Positions 7,056-19,610 of a stretch of 29,634 bases of DNA are shown here, piece by piece. Both the position numbers and the translations under genes were made by a program. How positions within the stretch are numbered: position 1 is the first letter of the stretch; every line of letters begins with the position of its first letter. Below the pieces are notes generated by a model, which was given only the letters and a program-made list of their open reading frames with translations, made no database searches and was not told the DNA's origin. Source of the DNA: Candidatus Heimdallarchaeota archaeon (GTDB taxonomy: Archaea; Asgardarchaeota; Heimdallarchaeia; Hodarchaeales; Hodarchaeaceae); contig RDOB01000002.1 of the NCBI GenBank assembly GCA_011364965.1, positions 616,631 to 646,264 on the forward strand. The letters are read 5' to 3'.

Positions 7056-7853
7056 ATGTCTATGATAGATGTTTTCTTCAACTATTTTCTTTATTACTTG
7101 CCAAGTTTTATTTTAACTTTTTTTGCTTTTTTGATAGGGATTGCAATATATTTTGTGGGGAAAAAAAAGAATATATATCTAATGAATCAATTTTCTTCTA
7201 AATTTAATGAAGCAATTGAAGGAAGAGTAAATAATCTCGACCTTAAAGAACATAGCACAGTTGGTAGAACATATTTAGGTGAAACAAAAGAAAATTTATC
7301 CTTAAGGAATTTTAGATTGCATTTCACTATGGTAAAACGTCATTTAATACTAAGTAAAGCAGGAGCAATCTTAAGAAATATTCATGATTATGTTCTTCTT
7401 GAAGCAGATCCATCAGATAACGTTGTGAAGCGCTATCAGCTTGAAATACTTCAGAAAAATGATATGAAACGTATTAAGGCTTTAAGTGATATGCTTCAAA
7501 CGTTAGAGACAATCGAATTAGGGGATAAAATTAAACAATTTTTCATTATCAAAACAAACGATAAGAATTTATTTCTCGCATGTTTTAGAGAAGATAAAAC
7601 CATTCTTAAGAAAATATATGCTCAAAGAAACTTTATCGTTAGAATCTCATATTATCCGTTAGAATCCCCTTCGATACATTTAGTAGCAGAAATGAGAGAA
7701 GGATTAAATCCAAAATTCTTAATTGATATACTATTTGATTTAACAACAATTATTACAAAATTGGGGAAATCAGGATACTATTCAAAACAGCGAGAGACCC
7801 AGAGAATTGTAAAAGATAAAACCATTGAGAAAGATAAAAGGGATTTTAAGTAG
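7056..7853 (+). CDS. Single-TM protein resembling CCDC47/DUF1682 (PAT complex subunit)
   Basis: One N-terminal TM followed by YFVGKKKNIYL, then LHFTMVKRHLIL...LRNIHDYVLLE, then a charged C-terminal helix. These blocks are colinear with human CCDC47 as I recall it. The CDS is certain; the homology is by eye. Confidence 0.6.
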   Translation: MSMIDVFFNYFLYYLPSFILTFFAFLIGIAIYFVGKKKNIYLMNQFSSKFNEAIEGRVNNLDLKEHSTVGRTYLGETKENLSLRNFRLHFTMVKRHLILSKAGAILRNIHDYVLLEADPSDNVVKRYQLEILQKNDMKRIKALSDMLQTLETIELGDKIKQFFIIKTNDKNLFLACFREDKTILKKIYAQRNFIVRISYYPLESPSIHLVAEMREGLNPKFLIDILFDLTTIITKLGKSGYYSKQRETQRIVKDKTIEKDKRDFK

Positions 7854-7862
7854 GAAATTATC

Positions 7863-8414
7863 TCACAAATTTTTAAGTGATTTGATTTTTCTATCAATTT
7901 TTATTCTTAGATCAAAAATGTCAGTGATAGTTGGAAATCGATATACAGGTAAATCTACATATTCTCCCTCTAAATCGCTTTCATAAAGACGAATACTAAA
8001 CCCTTTGGCTCCAATGTGTGATGATGCAATTGATAAGCTTACAAAAGAAAATTCATCCCATTTATATTCATATTTACGTTTTCCAATTTTAAAAATTATC
8101 GTGTTCTTGTCAAAAACTAATTCCCGTTTAAGATATCGAGTATAATAAAGATATGAGAGTGTTACTGCTCCCATAATTTGAACAATAACGGAAAAAATAT
8201 CAATTACAATGTATTCTTCCCCAAATATTTGAGCAATTTGATATCGAAGTGAAGTGAATCCTAGGATCTCTAATGCAAATATGATTAGAAAAATCATAAT
8301 TATTGAAAAATAACCTTTTGTTTTATGAATTATTGGGAATATTTCTTCAAAAATTGGATCGATTTCTTGTACCTTTGATTGTTCCATTTTAACAACCCTT
8401 ATTTCTTTACCCAA
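7863..8414 (-). CDS. Hypothetical membrane protein (2 TM + probable bacterial PH-like domain)
   Basis: Two TM helices, then a beta-rich ELVFDKNTIIFK...YEYKWDEFSFV pattern. Overlaps the upstream gene by 16 nt; alternative start ATG 8387. Confidence 0.7.
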   Translation of the reverse strand: MGKEIRVVKMEQSKVQEIDPIFEEIFPIIHKTKGYFSIIMIFLIIFALEILGFTSLRYQIAQIFGEEYIVIDIFSVIVQIMGAVTLSYLYYTRYLKRELVFDKNTIIFKIGKRKYEYKWDEFSFVSLSIASSHIGAKGFSIRLYESDLEGEYVDLPVYRFPTITDIFDLRIKIDRKIKSLKNL

Positions 8415-8980
8415 AACTTAAAGCTAGAATACTTTTTATCCAAGTTTATAGGATTAAATAATTTCGCCCCATGTCTACTAATAAACGTATTTGAATTTAT
8501 TATTACCTTATTTTTAAGATCTGCATAAAGTAAACCTAAAGTACGAGATTTATAGGTTGTTATACCTTTTTCTACCTTGGAAATAAGGTTACCCTCACCA
8601 AAGAATAATAACCACATCCATTCAAATTCCATTGCACTCATTACAGTTGTTGCATCACGAATATTTTCGACTAAAGTCGACCATTTTATAGATGGTGCTT
8701 TTTCAAGGTAGATTACCGAGCATCCAACTCGATATGTTGGGCTCGCCATAAATGCAAAGGCTTTAGAAAGAACAAATCCTTTATTACGAACCCCACCAAA
8801 AATTAATGCGTCAAATTTCTTTTTTTGATCAAATGTGGCTTTCTTCTTCAGTGTGGTGGCAATATCAAAATCTCTAATTGCTACATCAAAACTAGCGATC
8901 CAACGGCCACCTTTAATCATTAATTCATTTTCTATATAACGCAGATATCGTTCGTTATTTGAAATATTAATGGAAGACAC
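8399..8980 (-). CDS. Hypothetical alpha/beta protein
   Basis: 193-aa ORF with a GTG start. A BRE/TATA-like GAAAAAAACTTAAATA lies about 25 nt upstream, suggesting a leaderless transcript. Confidence 0.75.
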   Translation of the reverse strand: MSSINISNNERYLRYIENELMIKGGRWIASFDVAIRDFDIATTLKKKATFDQKKKFDALIFGGVRNKGFVLSKAFAFMASPTYRVGCSVIYLEKAPSIKWSTLVENIRDATTVMSAMEFEWMWLLFFGEGNLISKVEKGITTYKSRTLGLLYADLKNKVIINSNTFISRHGAKLFNPINLDKKYSSFKFWVKK

Positions 8981-9108
8981 AAATATCTAAAGTTTGAAAG
9001 TTATTTAAGTTTTTTTCTTTAGAAGAATGTTAACTTATGTAAAACTGATAATTTCCATTATTTGATTCTAAAAAATTAAGAGTATTTCACTTATATTGAT
9101 CTCTTTCT

Positions 9109-9154
9109 AAAAAAAGAAAAAAAAGGAAAAAAAAGAAAAAAAAGGGGGGAGGAG
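9109..9154 (-). terminator. Multi-U-tract terminator of the APC permease gene
   Basis: Plus strand A7-G-A8-GG-A8-G-A8-G6-AGGAG, i.e. a 46-nt pure pyrimidine tract on the minus strand starting 10 nt after the stop codon. Confidence 0.7.
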
Positions 9155-9164
9155 TTTGTTTGTT

Positions 9165-10991
9165 TTATTCGGGGGGAATGGAAGCATAAATTGTTGTAAA
9201 ATCTACACCGCGTTTACTGTAATAATTCTTCATGACTAGATATATTACCAATCCAATCAGAATTAATACAACGACCGTCCAGAAGCCCCAGTTGAATGTG
9301 GCTAAAATATCCGCTGCAGCAAAATCAGGTATCAGTCCAGTTCCCCAATCACCGTAAAATATTACAGGAACTAACGGGGGAACGAATGGAATTGGATCAA
9401 TGCCTAAAACAACATCTAATGTTGCTAGGATACCGAATTCACCTAGTATTATTAAGTCCAAATATATATTCGCTATCAGTGCTACCCAACCGATCACAAC
9501 AACAAGTTCACGGCTTCCCAACTTAGGCTTCCACGGCGCCCTGTCATAGACATCTTTTAGTCTTTTTGGCAGAACTATTGCAGCTACACATGCCATGGTG
9601 AAGAAGATACCATCAAACAGATCTGTGGCTGTAATACCATTTCCAAACAGATCAGCTAGAATAGGAATATCAAGAACTCCACCTGGAGTGAAGAAACCAC
9701 TTTCAGAGAAAGCTCCAAATACCGCGACAATTGCAGTAAACATAATGGCATTTGTAGGGCTGTGCCATCGTTCATCCACTTTAGCAAAAGCTTCGGGTAA
9801 AGCTCTGTCAAATGACATAGCGAATAAAATACGGGACGAAGTAGTTACGAATGGCGGAAGGTCATTTGCTAACCAAAGAACTGCTGCAATCGCGAACAAC
9901 AATGGAACAATTCCACCTAAAGCAAACCCTAATCCGTCAGCTGCCATGACAGCGACGAACGGCATCCAACCAAATCCTGTTAATGTTGGATCTGAAGTAG
10001 TAGCTCCATAATTATTGAATCCTAGAGCTTGGAAGAAAGTCCAACCATTTACATCTCCAACAGAAGCAGCCATACTAAGAAGCGTACTCACAGTCATATA
10101 TACGAATAGGATAATAAATCCAGCTCCCAGATGACTTATTGGTAAGGATTTGTTAGATTCTTTGACTTCACCAGCCGCGAATGAAATAGCAGCATATCCG
10201 ATCCAAGACCAGTATGCACCCAATATTGCTGTGTTAACTGCGCTGAAGTAATTAGGCGCTCGTGAAGCGTCAATTCCTGAATTAATTGCGTCCTGAATCC
10301 ATGCATTAGGTGCTGCTCCAGTAACATGCGTAATTCCACTGACCATAGCTGCCTCATTAAATGCACCGAATAGTAAGGAAAAGTAAATGCCAATTGTTAT
10401 TACTGCGGGAATCCAGAACATTGCATGGAGGAACTTTCCTGTCATTGAAGTACCAAAGTATGCTATAGCTGCAAAAGCGAATATGAAAATAATACCTATA
10501 ATGAGTTTCCAGAACGGATTGTTCAACGCATCAAAGATATCAAGAAGGAATCCAATATTGAAATAGACTTCACCAAAGGCTACGGGCAGAAATAGAAAAG
10601 AAAAATCTATTACTGCCACAGCAATTAACCCATAAGAAATCGCAATACCTAAGAACTCAGCCCAAGCTGATAAAAAGCCAACACCTGGACTAATGGTTCT
10701 TGATATATAGACGTATCCGCCACCTGCTCTAGGCATGGCAGTTGCCATTACTGCAAAAACAAATACAGTTGCGAGAGCAGCAATGCCAGTTAAGAGAAAT
10801 GCGATAACTAGAGGGTCTACTGGTAAAAACATATCATCGGGGTGTAATGGTGCCCAGCCTGTTGTTTGAAACACTCGTTTTTGCCATCCACCGCCTATAA
10901 CATTACTCAAAATGAATATTGTAGCGGTAACGACTCCTATTTCTCTAACTAAACCTGTTGCATCCCTCACATATGTCTTACTCTCAGACAT
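9165..10991 (-). CDS. APC-family amino acid/polyamine permease
   Basis: YVRDATGLVREIG N-terminus, MPRAGGGYVYISR, AGEVK, SRILFAMSFDRALP and a C-terminal IPPE; 12 or more TM helices; SD AGGTGA. Confidence 0.95.
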   Translation of the reverse strand: MSESKTYVRDATGLVREIGVVTATIFILSNVIGGGWQKRVFQTTGWAPLHPDDMFLPVDPLVIAFLLTGIAALATVFVFAVMATAMPRAGGGYVYISRTISPGVGFLSAWAEFLGIAISYGLIAVAVIDFSFLFLPVAFGEVYFNIGFLLDIFDALNNPFWKLIIGIIFIFAFAAIAYFGTSMTGKFLHAMFWIPAVITIGIYFSLLFGAFNEAAMVSGITHVTGAAPNAWIQDAINSGIDASRAPNYFSAVNTAILGAYWSWIGYAAISFAAGEVKESNKSLPISHLGAGFIILFVYMTVSTLLSMAASVGDVNGWTFFQALGFNNYGATTSDPTLTGFGWMPFVAVMAADGLGFALGGIVPLLFAIAAVLWLANDLPPFVTTSSRILFAMSFDRALPEAFAKVDERWHSPTNAIMFTAIVAVFGAFSESGFFTPGGVLDIPILADLFGNGITATDLFDGIFFTMACVAAIVLPKRLKDVYDRAPWKPKLGSRELVVVIGWVALIANIYLDLIILGEFGILATLDVVLGIDPIPFVPPLVPVIFYGDWGTGLIPDFAAADILATFNWGFWTVVVLILIGLVIYLVMKNYYSKRGVDFTTIYASIPPE

Positions 10992-11343
10992 TTATTAATT
11001 TCACCTTTTAGAAATTTCTATTAATTGTCTACTAAGTAATTATTGTAAAATCGATTAAAACAAATTTATCAATGTCTTATTTCGACCTACAATCCCAATT
11101 CATGAAAAATGCTCCTGTTTAATTTCATTGAATAGATATTTAGAAGCACTTAACACAAAAACAAAAGGGACTAGGGGCAGATTAAAAAACTTTCCTTTTT
11201 CATTAAATATAATGTAATTATAATCATGATTCAGCATAATAATTAAATAACTATTATTCCTATTCCTAATTATTTGAAATTACGTACGTTACCTATTGAA
11301 ATATCAATAAAATTCTAGAAATATGATTAAATTGGTGAAGTAA

Positions 11344-12354
11344 ATGGTGAGATTTTTCTTTTGTACAGATATACATGGATCCGAGGCGGTTTGGAGAAAA
11401 TTTCTAAATACTCCACGATATTTAAAAGTGGATACAATTATCATGGGTGGAGACATAACAGGGAAAAGAATTGTTCCTATTTTGCAACAATCTGACGGAA
11501 CTTGGAAAGGTAGTATCTACGGGACAGTAGATCAAGAAGTTATCATGAAAACAGAAGAAGAAATTGTTGATTTTGAAAAAAGAGCTCGAATGGCTGGTTG
11601 TTATCCAACTCGTTTAACTGCTAGAGAGAATGAGGATTTAGCAGAATCTCTTGAAGAAGAAGATGGGATTCAAAAATTAAAAAAAGGGGGAGCACTTGAT
11701 AAGCTTTTTGATCGTGTTGAAGCTGAGGGATTGCAAAAATGGATTGATATGGTTGATGATGTTATAGATGGTAGTAGACGAGTTCCTGAAGGAACGAAAA
11801 TTATAATTTGTCCCGGAAATGATGATAAATTTGCAATTGACGAGATAATCAAGAAAGATCCGCGTGTTATTTATGGGGAAATGGCAAAAATTGATTTAGA
11901 TAATGATCATGAAATGATAAGTTATGGTTGGACAACACCGACTCCTTGGGATACATATCGCGAATGTAATGAAGAAAATATAAAAGAGAAAATAGAAGAA
12001 TTGGTTTCATTAGTAAATAACATTGAAAATTCTGTATTCTGTTTCCATTGTCCTCCTTATGAAAGCAAAATCGATGAAGCTCCATTATTGAATCCAGATC
12101 TTACGTATGTGGGTTGGAGAGGTGGAGAACCCATTAGAGGCGCAACAGGTTCAAAAGCGGTCAGGGAAGCTATAGAAAAATATCAACCTATTGTTTCGTT
12201 GCATGGACATATTCATGAATCACCTGGGTCTGTCAAAATTGGACGCACGTATTGCATTAATCCGGGGAGTGAATATTCTGAGGCTATTCTTAAAGGATAT
12301 TTAGTGGAATTGGAAAAAGGTGAACTGAAAGCAATGCAAAGGGTTGAAGCTTAA
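11344..12354 (+). CDS. Calcineurin-like (Icc-related) metallophosphoesterase
   Basis: Motifs DIHGS, GGDITGK, PGNDD, FHCPPY, HGHIHE and INPGS; SD GGTGA. Confidence 0.93.
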   Translation: MVRFFFCTDIHGSEAVWRKFLNTPRYLKVDTIIMGGDITGKRIVPILQQSDGTWKGSIYGTVDQEVIMKTEEEIVDFEKRARMAGCYPTRLTARENEDLAESLEEEDGIQKLKKGGALDKLFDRVEAEGLQKWIDMVDDVIDGSRRVPEGTKIIICPGNDDKFAIDEIIKKDPRVIYGEMAKIDLDNDHEMISYGWTTPTPWDTYRECNEENIKEKIEELVSLVNNIENSVFCFHCPPYESKIDEAPLLNPDLTYVGWRGGEPIRGATGSKAVREAIEKYQPIVSLHGHIHESPGSVKIGRTYCINPGSEYSEAILKGYLVELEKGELKAMQRVEA

Positions 12355-12472
12355 ATTTAATTCAAGGATAAGGATCATTTAATTAAAGAGGAGAATAAAT
12401 TCAAACAAAAACTTTTAATATCTTCATCCTGATAAAAAATAACATTAAAAACTGCATTTTTGAGGCCCAAAA

Positions 12473-13333
12473 ATGGATCCATCATTAAAAGTACAAAATG
12501 ATAAGCTTATGAAAGTAGGTTACTTGATCCTTCAGGAATGTAAAAAAAAATCTCTCCCCTGTTTTCTTTGGGGCGGCGGAGCTATTTATCACATGCTTGG
12601 AGGAAAGCTAGATTATCGGATAATGAGCGATATTGAATTTTTCCTTCCAAAAGCTGCTGATAAATCTATTCAGGAAATCCTTGAAAAATTAGGATTTATT
12701 CCCTATAAAACCTTTAATAATATACAAAATATGTATTCGAATCCAAGAAGGGAATTTTATCGTCCAAGCAGGGAGCTAACTGACTCTGAAATCGAAGATA
12801 TAATGCATGGAAGGAGGAAGAATGTGAAAGATGTCGAATTTCAAAAAGTGGAGCTCTTCATTGATGGTATCAGGATGTGTTGGTTATTCAAGATAGAAGA
12901 TTTGCCAAAAAATTATTTTGATTCACTAATATGTCCTCCGGGATTCCAAATTGCCCTTAAAGTTAATCCTATCCATCCTGATGATTTTGATTTTAAAGAT
13001 ATCCAAGATATTTCTAGTGTTTTAAATAAATCAGGATGTGAAATAAAAGAATTTGATTCGATTTTTATTGAACCTCAAGTCACTGAGGACATAAATTTTA
13101 GTATAGGTACCAATTTTCTCGAAAAAATAGCTAAAGATAAGTACGAGTTTCCAACAACAGCAGTTAGAAATTTAAAAGAAGTTTTAAATTATTCTGGTCT
13201 TACTGAAGATGGAAAATCAAAAGTTCAACAATTGATAGATTATTTAAGTCCATTTATCTCAATCGATCAAGGAAGCCGTTTAAAAAATATTAAACGAGAA
13301 AAACCTGTACGGGTTGATGCTAGAACCCGATAA
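12473..13333 (+). CDS. Pol-beta-superfamily nucleotidyltransferase-like protein (divergent paralogue)
   Basis: LWGGGAIYH...RIMSDIEFF...KVELF...LK...KDIQD; colinear with the convergent neighbour at 13373-14302. Confidence 0.7.
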   Translation: MDPSLKVQNDKLMKVGYLILQECKKKSLPCFLWGGGAIYHMLGGKLDYRIMSDIEFFLPKAADKSIQEILEKLGFIPYKTFNNIQNMYSNPRREFYRPSRELTDSEIEDIMHGRRKNVKDVEFQKVELFIDGIRMCWLFKIEDLPKNYFDSLICPPGFQIALKVNPIHPDDFDFKDIQDISSVLNKSGCEIKEFDSIFIEPQVTEDINFSIGTNFLEKIAKDKYEFPTTAVRNLKEVLNYSGLTEDGKSKVQQLIDYLSPFISIDQGSRLKNIKREKPVRVDARTR

Positions 13334-13372
13334 AATTCTAACTTATTTGATTATATTGGTAAGCTCTATCAA

Positions 13373-14302
13373 TTATGGTTTTGGCTTTTCAAAGAGGTGT
13401 TTCCCACTAAAAATACCAAACTCTCCAACCGTTTGAGTTGTTTCAACAGGACGATACCATTTTTTCGTCGATCCTATTTTTGCTCTCGCTCTCCAAGCTC
13501 GATTCTTCTCAATTTGCGAAAAATACTCCAGTATTTCATTAATTTTTGTGGAAATATTCATTTTTTGATCTTCATTAAGCTCATTAAAACTAGGTAATAT
13601 ATCCTTTATTTTCGCTAAATTAGTAGTTACTGTATGATAGAATCCCCACGCATAGGTACCTTTACTCAAATATTTCTCACCAATGTATTTGATATTGATA
13701 GCTTCGGGTTCATCAGAATAGCTAATTTTATGGGGAATTAAGAGCATCATAGTATCAACTAAATCTTTATAGTTCATAAAAACAATTTGTGTTTTGCCCA
13801 AAAATAGTTCTGCTAATGGTAGTGTGGGGGAATCTAATTTTAAGCGTGAATTATCTAATTCAATATCATGATTAAATTTTATTGAACCATAAAAACAATC
13901 GATGAACCACCAGTTTTTTGGATGAAGATATATTCGTCTTTGACTTGCAGTAGAACTTAGTGTTGGTTTACGTTTAATATATCCCATTTTTCCTATGAAT
14001 TTGTCCATACCTTTCATATCTTTATATGAAATCGCTCCATCAATATCTGTAATCTCAATCTCGTCATCTCCTAGTCGTTTCAGACTTTTATAAAGTCCTT
14101 CAAGACCGTGTGGCTGCACATGTAACCGTATGGCTAATCCTCCGAGAAGTCTAAATAAGACTCCTGCTTTTTCAGCTTCAAAAACTAGTTTTTTCGCTTC
14201 TTCGATAAATACATGCAATGGAATAACCCCACCCCATTCCTCTGGAAGATCAACAAGCTCAACACCCTCTTTTTTTTGTAATGAAATTAATATCACCACC
14301 AA
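13373..14302 (-). CDS. Pol-beta-superfamily nucleotidyltransferase-like protein
   Basis: RLLGGLAIRLH...ITDIDG...FIDCF...GKTQ...KDLVD: the GG...DxD...D signature plus the K...KDxxD helical motif. Start is uncertain (TTG 14302, or GTG 14299/14296). Confidence 0.78.
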   Translation of the reverse strand: MVVILISLQKKEGVELVDLPEEWGGVIPLHVFIEEAKKLVFEAEKAGVLFRLLGGLAIRLHVQPHGLEGLYKSLKRLGDDEIEITDIDGAISYKDMKGMDKFIGKMGYIKRKPTLSSTASQRRIYLHPKNWWFIDCFYGSIKFNHDIELDNSRLKLDSPTLPLAELFLGKTQIVFMNYKDLVDTMMLLIPHKISYSDEPEAINIKYIGEKYLSKGTYAWGFYHTVTTNLAKIKDILPSFNELNEDQKMNISTKINEILEYFSQIEKNRAWRARAKIGSTKKWYRPVETTQTVGEFGIFSGKHLFEKPKP

Positions 14303-14392: not shown

Positions 14393-15136
14393 TTAATTTA
14401 GTGAGAGTAATTCCTCCAAGCTTTCCACGGCTTCTCCGATAATTAATATGGCAAAGAATAATAAAATAATAGCAGAACCCTTCGTAATCCAGTTAAAGAA
14501 TCTTGGATTTGGTGATCGTCTAATGACTGCTAAAAAAGTAGTAAATATGAGAACCCATGCAAGAATTCCTGATAAAAACATTAATACAATAATCAGACGT
14601 GATACTAAATCAGGAGCGTTAAAATCACTAAATAATATTATTGTTCCAGCTGAAATCCACCATAGGTATGACCATGGAGAGCTAATTACAACTGATAAAC
14701 CAGTTATGTACCGATTTGATAAGTATCGTGAAATATTAATTTGGTTCTTTGAAGTACTAATTAGATTTGTGTTATCAATACTAATTATTCCCTCTGTTTT
14801 TTTTAAAAGGCTTGAGATGCCCAAATATCCCAGAATCAATATATTAATTACAAAAAGTATTAGCTTAATCAAAGGATTAGAAAAAATATCTTCCAAGGTT
14901 TCTCCTCCAATAGTTAGGGCCATAAACGCCATAAAAAAGTCTCCAGTCATGGCGCCTATTCCAATCAAAATTGAGGAAAGCCAAGCAACCTTATGACCAT
15001 ATGATATATTAAGAGCCTGCTTAATCATTTCTACATTGATAGGCCCCAAAGGCGCAGCAAGAGTTATACCTAGAAATGCGACAATGAACCAGGTTCCTAA
15101 AATCTCTAATAGGTTCAAAAATAATTTTATCTCCAA
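14393..15136 (-). CDS. LysE/RhtB-family amino acid exporter
   Basis: LAAPLGPINV, G...GAMTGD, YLG and SPWSYLWW motifs; about 6 TM helices. Confidence 0.9.
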   Translation of the reverse strand: MEIKLFLNLLEILGTWFIVAFLGITLAAPLGPINVEMIKQALNISYGHKVAWLSSILIGIGAMTGDFFMAFMALTIGGETLEDIFSNPLIKLILFVINILILGYLGISSLLKKTEGIISIDNTNLISTSKNQINISRYLSNRYITGLSVVISSPWSYLWWISAGTIILFSDFNAPDLVSRLIIVLMFLSGILAWVLIFTTFLAVIRRSPNPRFFNWITKGSAIILLFFAILIIGEAVESLEELLSLN

Positions 15137-18686: not shown

Positions 18687-19610
18687 TTATATCCTTAATA
18701 ATGGTAATGTCATACAATGAGGGCCCCCTCCGCCTCTAGATAGTTCACTTCCTTTAATTGGAATTACCTCAACTGATTGGTCTCGTAATTCATGTATTAT
18801 TCGTTCATTCCATTCATAAATAACACATTTTCTTCTTTCAAGGCAAAATATGTTTGCTCCAAATAGATATAACTCATTATCTGTTATTTTTATGTTTCTT
18901 GCCTCATATTTTTCATTTAGAAACTCCAATAAAGTCATTAGTTCTATAGGTTCATTTTTTCGTAAAATTCGGGCCGGATAGGTAGAGATCGAGGCAGGAT
19001 GGTAAACAAAAAGGTCTTTATCTAGAAACATTATTCCTCCATCGAGATGAATTCGCCATGAGGGAAGAGGAACTAAAACCACAGTATGTACAAGTTCCTT
19101 CTCAAGTAATATTTTACTTACTTTTTTGGCACTTCGTTCAGTTGTTCTTGTACCATATCCAATGAGTAATGTATTATCATCAGGAAAGACAAGATCCCCT
19201 CCTTCTACCACGTCAGGAGATTCAATTTCCATTAATTTAGGGATTTTAAGTTTTTGGAGAGCATAAGAGATTAATAATGGTTCGATTGATCTCACATTAT
19301 GTTTCATATTCATTTGGATATATCCCCCTTTGGTTACGGCACAAATATCACGTACATAAGTCAAATTTGGATTAATAACTGCTATTTCTTTTTCTGTGAG
19401 CAAATCATTCAAAAAAATGACTTTAATTCCATTTTCAAGTAATGTTCTGGAAAAATTATCATGCTCTTCTTGAAATCGCTTCCAGAATACAACATCCCTA
19501 AAAGAAAATTCCTTAAAAGAATTAACTGTAATTTTTTTGCATTCTTCTCCAGGACGGTACATTAAGACTTTTTTTAGCGAGTTATATTCACAATGAGCAC
19601 CAAATTCCAT
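18687..19610 (-). CDS. Short-form arginine deiminase/amidinotransferase (pentein) family protein
   Basis: NLTYVRD, EGGD, GTRT, HLD and [13 protein letters not shown]; the Cys-His-acid triad is intact. At 307 aa it is too short to carry the helical clip domain of long ADIs. Confidence 0.88.

Follow-up and report, generated by a model that had tools for sequence, protein, structure and literature searches.

A conserved permease-associated cassette of nucleotidyltransferases and a metallophosphoesterase in a Heimdallarchaeota genome

Why should a nutrient permease be encoded beside two nucleotidyltransferases and a phosphoesterase? The question is raised by positions 9165-14302 of a 29,634-nucleotide stretch of a Candidatus Heimdallarchaeota archaeon genome of the order Hodarchaeales (assembly GCA_011364965.1, contig RDOB01000002.1, positions 616,631 to 646,264), hereafter the window. 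Four genes lie there: an amino acid-polyamine-organocation (APC) superfamily permease (9165-10991, minus strand, 608 residues), a calcineurin-like metallophosphoesterase (MPE; 11344-12354, plus strand, 336 residues) and two Pol-beta-fold nucleotidyltransferases (NTases), NT1 (12473-13333, plus strand, 286 residues) and NT2 (13373-14302, minus strand, 309 residues). Our open reading frame (ORF) calls match exactly the positions given in an initial annotation of the window; the database version of NT2 begins one codon later than the window ORF. We find that these genes are the Asgard version of a conserved and, it appears, undescribed permease-associated cassette, which probably couples nutrient uptake to a nucleotide-based switch.

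Conservation of the cassette across archaea and bacteria

We surveyed the neighbourhoods of NT2 relatives at 80 loci, taken from more than 542 confirmed in species-representative genomes, with ORFs called, clustered and mapped for each locus. Thirty-eight of these loci have flanks of 6 kb or more on each side; the phosphoesterase is present at 26 of them, the permease at 26 and both at 25; a second NTase occurs at 19 of the 38, and w09 and w08, two small genes described below, at 15. A second survey, seeded with the phosphoesterase, covered 80 of more than 595 loci in an independent collection of metagenome contigs, many of them just 1-5 kb long. An NT2-family gene was found at 63 of these 80 loci, many on such short contigs, and at the loci with at least 5 kb on both sides (n = 11) the permease was present in every case and an NTase in 10. 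The hosts include Asgard archaea, Bathyarchaeia, Nitrososphaeria, Anaerolineae and Actinomycetota, and an NT2-family gene occurs in 93 of 251 sampled Asgard genomes. Phosphoesterase homologues with 36-47% identity adjoin NT2 in other phyla, and synteny is stable, with 70-77% identity within the order. The genome that contains the window carries a single copy each of NT1, NT2 and the phosphoesterase.

The permease is thus inherited together with an active-site-intact cytoplasmic phosphoesterase and one or two Pol-beta NTases of the MenT/ANT(2'')/LnuA/JHP933 clade, and in many lineages the unit extends to a membrane-anchored pair, w09 and w08. This gene linkage shows that the proteins of the cassette work together. 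The initial annotation had proposed an uncharacterised system that ties an APC permease to nucleotidyl transfer and phosphoester hydrolysis, and had staked the proposal on co-localisation in other genomes and on the NTase fold. The genes co-localise across archaeal and bacterial phyla and both NTases have the fold in their AlphaFold2 models, and the proposal is therefore supported. Its boundaries have to be redrawn: what had been described as a four-gene module is a cassette of six or seven genes, with w09 and w08 added and, in Asgard archaea, w07 as well. Elsewhere, the conserved minimal core is one NTase, the phosphoesterase and the permease.

Gene order differs between lineages (arrowheads give the direction of each gene). 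Hodarchaeales have w08<w09<APC< >MPE>NT1> <NT2, Bathyarchaeia NT2c> <w09-w08 fusion<APC< >MPE>NT2a>, and Anaerolineae NT2a> <USP >MPE> <NT2b<w08<w09<APC, the last with a universal stress protein (USP) inserted into the module. Actinomycetota and many soil contigs carry a co-directional three-gene form, MPE>APC>NT or NT>MPE>APC. Two complete three-gene cassettes lie within 20 kb of each other on one Bathyarchaeia and one Actinomycetota contig (L074, L076). Two metagenome-assembled genomes of Hodarchaeota/Promethearchaeota (L055:1-5701 and L056) hold a second, single-NTase cassette, MPE< APC> NT2>, directly followed by an MttB-superfamily methyltransferase gene, which suggests a quaternary-amine substrate for that copy.

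The nucleotidyltransferases and the phosphoesterase

Both NTases carry the motifs that had been read from the window sequence (GGxAI, DI[D/E], a third acidic residue and K...KDxxD). In NT1 these are GGGAI (G35-G36), S52 followed by D53-I-E55, E127, K163 and K175-D176-x-x-D179; in NT2 they are GGLAI (G54-G55), T85 followed by D86-I-D88, D135, N144-H145, K170 and K179-D180-x-x-D183. All of these motifs are invariant or nearly so in the alignment of each protein's own family, the superfamily motif residues, the GG pair and the acidic triad, being invariant or at least 90% conserved. In AlphaFold2 models with a predicted local distance difference test (pLDDT) score of 92 for NT1 and 82 for NT2, the acidic residues fall on the strands where they are expected (53-58 and 123-130 in NT1, 86-91 and 133-138 in NT2). 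In these models, both proteins combine hG[GS], [DE]h[DE]h, a third carboxylate and the alpha/beta core fold that define the Pol-beta-type superfamily.

A VIA-align search with either model retrieves the same eight solved NTases, namely ANT(2'')-Ia, LnuA, MenT1, TglT/MenT3, MenT4, JHP933, 5uvd and TM1012, at Z 8.2-11.2, with unrelated rows at 7.8 or below. The strongest matches of NT1 are ANT(2'') (Z 11.1), LnuA (10.4) and MenT1 (9.9), and those of NT2 are MenT1 (11.2), ANT(2'') (10.9), 5uvd (10.6) and JHP933 (10.2), with LnuA at 9.1. Foldseek gives probabilities of 1.00 (NT1) and 0.98 (NT2) to JHP933, and of up to 1.00 (NT1) and 0.99 (NT2) to MenT1.

Sequence families add little. PF14907 (NTP_transf_5) is the sole Pfam family matched recurrently, always below threshold: by NT1 (23.3 bits against a gathering threshold of 31.2, E 5e-5), by the NT2b subfamily introduced below (E 4.5e-4) and by 13 of 38 NT2a members (E 8e-4 or weaker). 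The window NT2 has no match in the Pfam scan of its protein. NCBIfam, PADLOC and PDB-sequence searches contributed nothing for the NTases, the PDB search being empty with NT1, NT2 and the family profile (A2). Assignment to DUF1814/AbiEii/MenT finds no footing in the sequence models, PF08843 being matched by 1 of 38 NT2 members at E 0.09 and PADLOC giving no AbiE match. Nor do the proteins fall with the CD-NTases of the cyclic-oligonucleotide-based anti-phage signalling system (CBASS): matches to CdnE, CdnB and CdnD reach template modelling (TM) scores of 0.16-0.24, and no effector was found. Neither NTase matches an HD or ACT domain. Median isoelectric points (pI) of 5.5-7.1, and of 8.1 in the small NT2c subfamily, mark the NTase families as near neutral or acidic.

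The two NTases had been described as mutually homologous paralogues. Homology holds, by way of a bridging subfamily; close paralogy does not. Direct BLASTP between NT1 and NT2 shows no similarity (E 1.8), and their profile-profile comparison is marginal (E 3.5e-4, 37% probability, 85 columns). Outside Hodarchaeales, the module usually contains two NT2-family genes: NT2a, the orthologue of NT2, and a second gene that is either NT2b (shorter, about 250 residues) or NT2c (longer, about 370 residues), all three of which keep the full catalytic set. The NT1 profile matches NT2b at E 7.9e-9 (95.8% probability, 198 columns) and NT2c at E 2.8e-5, and the NT2 profile matches NT2b at E 1.5e-57. Local signatures are also common to NT1 and NT2b, a GF/GY-x-P...FN-x-x-Q segment and an M-C-[HW] motif. 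Together with the profile match, these signatures identify NT1, at the level of sequence, as a divergent, Asgard-restricted counterpart of NT2b. Two diverged NTases side by side are thus a recurring trait of the module. NT1 and NT2 are thus not close paralogues; they are members of two deeply diverged subfamilies of the MenT/ANT(2'')/LnuA-like clade.

NT1 keeps the three carboxylates, two of them as Glu, has Trp in place of the family His and carries an insert at about residues 97-122; its role may be that of a regulatory partner or of a catalyst with altered properties. Both proteins end in conserved C-terminal tails that are modelled with low confidence, ...KPxRVDAR in NT1 and W-Y-x-P-V-E-T...G-E-F-G-I in NT2. 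Sequence searches found no longer, fused forms of NT2, a weak negative since a fold search of the ESM Atlas did find NT2-like folds in fusions. These predicted folds (TM 0.74-0.77, about 250-276 residues) lie inside 677-residue Fic-domain proteins of Actinomycetota and inside 576-residue phosphoribosyltransferase-domain proteins of Microcaldota, and may be informative fusions. Fusions of an NTase to the phosphoesterase were absent from the 80 phosphoesterase-seeded metagenome loci, the one set inspected for them.

The phosphoesterase matches Pfam Metallophos (PF00149) at 30.6 bits (cut-off 21.5), is acidic (pI 4.9) and has no signal peptide. Its metal-binding motifs, D9-x-H11, G36-D37, G158-N159-D160-D161, H235 and G288-H289-x-H291, are invariant among the 30 sequences of its alignment (A3), marking it as a calcineurin-like metallophosphoesterase with an intact active site. 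An insert of about 120 residues separates the second (GD) and third (GNDD) motifs. The third motif is GNDD, not GNH[DE], and so resembles that of the YfcE/MJ0936-type clade of phosphodiesterases. NCBIfam gave only weak YfcE-type matches, and the family profile produced weak, sub-significance matches in the PDB to aq_1956 (2yvt), SapH, MPPED2 and Rv0805.

The permease tail, the accessory proteins and the neighbourhood

The permease has about 14 predicted membrane helices and matches Pfam AA_permease (65.7 bits, cut-off 24.6) and AA_permease_2 (64.8 bits), which places it in the APC superfamily. No characterised subfamily rises above cut-off, and its NCBIfam subfamily matches are weak. Its cytoplasmic C-terminal tail ends ...GVDFTTIYASIPPE. 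The corresponding motif, G-[VI]-D-x4-[IF]-[YFA]-x-x-[IVL]-P-P-E-stop, is found in about 45 of 47 module-linked permeases across phyla. Other permeases of the family were sought in the same genome as a control for the motif; this is the only one there.

Downstream of the permease and on the same strand lies w09 (8399-8980, minus strand, 193 residues), a soluble basic protein with a pI of 9.9 (alignments A4 and A5). Its family is very small, with 81 matching clusters among 1.84 billion representatives, and its relatives have no significant match in Pfam, in PDB sequences or in the Atlas features. Two of 17 members match PF21555, the C-terminal domain of a prokaryotic cation-chloride cotransporter, at a sub-significant E of 0.006, and none of the 81 clusters is fused to a permease. 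The start of w08 (7863-8414, minus strand, 183 residues) overlaps the end of w09 by 16 nt. Helix prediction and alignment A6 give w08 two membrane helices followed by a beta-rich cytoplasmic domain of about 95 residues that ends in a helix, a putative PH-like fold; it has no significant Pfam or PDB match. The two genes form one ORF at seven Bathyarchaeia loci, database proteins show fusions in both orders, and both families are essentially confined to this module. Next to w08 lies w07 (7056-7853, plus strand, 265 residues), with one predicted N-terminal membrane helix and no Pfam match. Its homologues (42-52% identity) occupy the same position at L002 and L005-L009. Since its place in the neighbourhood is conserved only in Asgard loci, w07 may be an accessory peculiar to that lineage.

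Permease and phosphoesterase diverge from an AT-rich intergenic region of 352 nt (10992-11343), which presumably holds a bidirectional promoter, and the convergent NT1 and NT2 are separated by 39 nt. The spacer between the permease and w09 (8981-9164) contains a long purine-rich tract on the plus strand, with A and G runs near 9110-9160, which reads as pyrimidine-rich on the coding strand. Antisense ORFs inside the permease (9595-10011, plus strand, 138 residues) and inside the gene of a LysE-type exporter (14448-14996, plus strand, 182 residues) are most likely shadow frames rather than genes. The exporter gene itself (14393-15136, minus strand) shares the strand of NT2 and lies 90 nt upstream of it. 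L003 and L004 also have LysE followed by NT2, and NT2 may therefore be co-transcribed with an amino-acid exporter in some Hodarchaeales.

Catabolic genes surround the cassette in the window: the LysE exporter, a class-III aminotransferase, an M20 peptidase, a CE4 deacetylase and an ADI/DDAH-like enzyme (18687-19610, 4.4 kb from NT2). Elsewhere, the cassette adjoins genes for MttB-like methyltransferases or creatinase-like M24 peptidases. Four Bathyarchaeia loci (L031, L033, L037 and L042) have NT2-family genes that lack the phosphoesterase and permease; their neighbours encode a creatinase-like M24 peptidase, a DDAH/ADI-like enzyme, a nitroreductase and TldD/PmbA. Enzymes acting on guanidino groups thus recur near NT2-family genes across these loci and the window. 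No PII or glutamine synthetase match was found among the scanned ORFs between 7056 and 22792, and no winged helix-turn-helix or AbiEi match among the phosphoesterase, permease, LysE exporter and w07-w09. As the initial annotation had stated, no HEPN, antitoxin or CBASS effector gene stands beside these genes in Pfam and PADLOC searches. PADLOC found no CBASS-like component at the locus and no match for either NTase. A defence-system reading was set aside, as PADLOC gave just a weak match of the phosphoesterase to the candidate family PDC-S10.

A possible nucleotidylation switch and its alternatives

Among the functions that could unite these proteins, we rank first a reversible nucleotidylation switch docked on the permease, a reading that we hold tentatively and at somewhat less than an even chance. 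The enzymes would gather at the permease, with the conserved tail as the probable docking site. With its canonical catalytic set, NT2 would transfer a nucleoside monophosphate (NMP) to a hydroxyl group of a protein in the complex; candidate targets are the w09/w08 unit, the permease and the NTase itself. NT1 would act as a divergent second catalyst or as a regulatory partner, and the phosphoesterase would remove the nucleotidyl mark. Writer and eraser would thereby let the state of the cell decide whether a nitrogen-rich compound is taken up.

Several observations favour such a regulatory complex over a metabolic pathway: the permease tail is kept in about 45 of 47 homologues and both NTase tails are conserved; w09 and w08, which are not enzymes, occur as fusions in both orders and essentially nowhere outside this module; a universal stress protein stands in the Anaerolineae module; and the same cassette appears beside differing catabolic genes. 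The catalytic residues retained by both the NTases and the phosphoesterase also count in favour of the switch. It is ranked first because it is the sole reading that makes use of the conserved tails, the non-enzymatic membrane pair, the stress protein and the varied catabolic neighbourhoods together.

Other observations weigh against the switch. We know of no NTase of the MenT/ANT(2'')/LnuA clade that modifies a protein. The acceptors of ANT(2'') and LnuA are small-molecule hydroxyls, according to the titles of their PDB entries, and those of MenT enzymes are tRNA 3' ends (PMC10435456, PMC7450476). Judged by its residues, the permease tail is not itself the nucleotidyl acceptor, because it has no conserved hydroxyl residue among the 47 homologues. 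Many loci show just three genes and no w09/w08, most of them on short contigs; where the pair is truly absent, the target must be the permease, the NTase or something else. Finally, no PII-like or other known signal protein is adjacent.

The acceptors of ANT(2'')-Ia and LnuA point to a different reading, in which the cassette processes a metabolite. The permease would import an amine or amino-alcohol, an NTase would at once nucleotidylate its hydroxyl group and so trap or activate it ("vectorial nucleotidylation"), and the phosphodiesterase would then split the adduct, releasing a phospho-compound or the free compound to the catabolic enzymes encoded nearby. These two small-molecule O-nucleotidylyltransferases are among the best structural matches of NT2 and NT1 (Z 10.9 and 11.1 for ANT(2'')-Ia, 9.1 and 10.4 for LnuA), and the median pI values (5.5-7.1; NT2c 8.1) are unlike those of a typical RNA binder. 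The tightly spaced, co-directional MPE-APC-NT and NT-MPE-APC forms resemble catabolic operons, the cassette lies in amine and nitrogen catabolic neighbourhoods, and the GNDD motif and weak YfcE-type matches of the phosphoesterase fit the proposed cleavage. However, no catabolic route is known in which a nucleoside triphosphate is spent on labelling a nutrient and the label is then hydrolysed, the cassette remains constant among changing catabolic neighbours, and two distinct NTases, the w09/w08 pair, the stress protein and the conserved permease tail are all left unexplained. We consider metabolite processing possible but doubtful, though it comes close behind the switch. About as doubtful is a composite proposal, a new transporter-coupled nucleotidyl-transfer system whose enzymes dock on the ...IPPE tail and either gate the permease by protein nucleotidylation or nucleotidylate the entering cargo, with NT1 remodelled in Hodarchaeales to a DxE/Trp variant. 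Its cargo-nucleotidylation case would be a group translocation that uses NMP instead of phosphate.

Two signalling schemes appear less probable. In one, the NTases would make a nucleotide messenger, the phosphoesterase would degrade it, and w09 (or the stress protein in Anaerolineae) would sense it and gate the permease. This would suit the stress protein inside the Anaerolineae module, the weak matches of the phosphoesterase profile to the cyclic-nucleotide and dinucleotide hydrolases MPPED2, Rv0805 and SapH, and the weak match of 2 of 17 w09 members to a cation-chloride cotransporter C-terminal domain (E 0.006). But the similarities of w09 and the phosphoesterase are all sub-significance, the NTases match CD-NTases poorly (TM 0.18-0.24), PADLOC detects nothing like a CBASS component and messenger synthesis is not known from any member of the MenT/ANT clade, which together render the messenger loop improbable. 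The other is growth control of the MenT/AbiEii kind, in which toxin-like NTases would extend tRNA 3' ends and block translation, autophosphorylation would inactivate them, the phosphoesterase would reactivate them and the permease would supply a nutritional cue. The top structural matches include MenT1, MenT3 (TglT) and MenT4 (Z 8.3-11.2). Autophosphorylation of a Ser/Thr beside the catalytic Asp inactivates MenT toxins (PMC11375011), and in NT2 and NT1 the invariant T85 and S52 directly precede the first catalytic Asp. In NT2b, by contrast, Gly occupies the corresponding position, no gene resembling an antitoxin is present, neither PADLOC nor the AbiEii model gives a match, and the NTases are not basic. 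The high conservation and stable synteny (70-77% identity within the order) are unlike those of defence or toxin-antitoxin loci, and the strict linkage to a permease would go unexplained. Such growth control is the least probable of these readings, and we regard it as very unlikely.

Relation to known systems and significance

The cassette draws on known superfamilies, and the principle on which it works may be a known one too. Its logic resembles that of GlnD-GlnK-AmtB or of DrrA/SidD, by analogy and with unrelated parts. As in the GlnD-GlnK (PII)-AmtB system and GlnE, a Pol-beta NTase and a removing activity are genetically tied to a transporter of nitrogen compounds, and GlnE itself carries two diverged NTase domains. 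The cassette nevertheless falls outside the GlnD/GlnE type: it has no PII protein and no HD or ACT domain, its NTases are separate chains from another clade (MenT/ANT(2'')/LnuA-like), its candidate eraser is a calcineurin-like metallophosphoesterase and its transporter is an APC permease, not an Amt channel. DrrA/SidM and SidD of Legionella AMPylate and de-AMPylate Rab1, pairing an NTase-fold writer with an eraser of metal-dependent phosphatase fold. These families are unrelated to those of the cassette (a GlnE-like NTase and a PP2C-like eraser) and are secreted effectors that act on a host GTPase, not components of a transporter cassette.

Closer in fold are MenT1, MenT3, MenT4 and AbiEii (DUF1814), which have the same fold (Z 8.3-11.2), the same motif order (GG, DxD, third acid, K, [KR]DxxD) and a Ser/Thr beside the catalytic Asp. 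The cassette differs from them in having no cognate antitoxin gene and no significant PF08843 match, in its neutral to acidic NTases and in the strict linkage of these, in stable synteny, to a permease and a phosphoesterase. ANT(2'')-Ia and LnuA are the best or near-best structural matches of NT1 and NT2 (Z 9.1-11.1) and have the same catalytic core, but sequence identity is 10-16%, NT1 and NT2 exceed them by 110-150 residues and possess an additional C-terminal helical domain as well as conserved tails, and the cassette is not in a resistance context. PF14907, the family that recurs below threshold, is itself uncharacterised. Full-text searches of the literature for the gene combination found no relevant paper, the single mention of PF14907 being uninformative. 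No description appears to exist of the families NT2a, NT2b, NT2c, NT1, w09 and w08, of the permease tail motif or of the assembly in its entirety.

The cassette is widespread, with NT2 relatives at more than 542 sites in species-representative genomes and phosphoesterase relatives at more than 595 in metagenome contigs, and its hosts belong to abundant uncultured lineages, among them Bathyarchaeia, Anaerolineae, soil Actinomycetota and Asgard archaea. It adjoins genes for the use of nitrogen-rich compounds. If the switch is true, the task performed by GlnD-PII-AmtB would have been solved a second time, independently, and MenT/ANT-like NTases would have their first role that is neither toxin nor resistance. 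If instead the cargo is modified, the cassette would represent a new uptake chemistry. Either reading would give a role to NT2a, NT2b, NT2c, NT1, w09, w08 and this clade of phosphoesterases, families that have had none so far.

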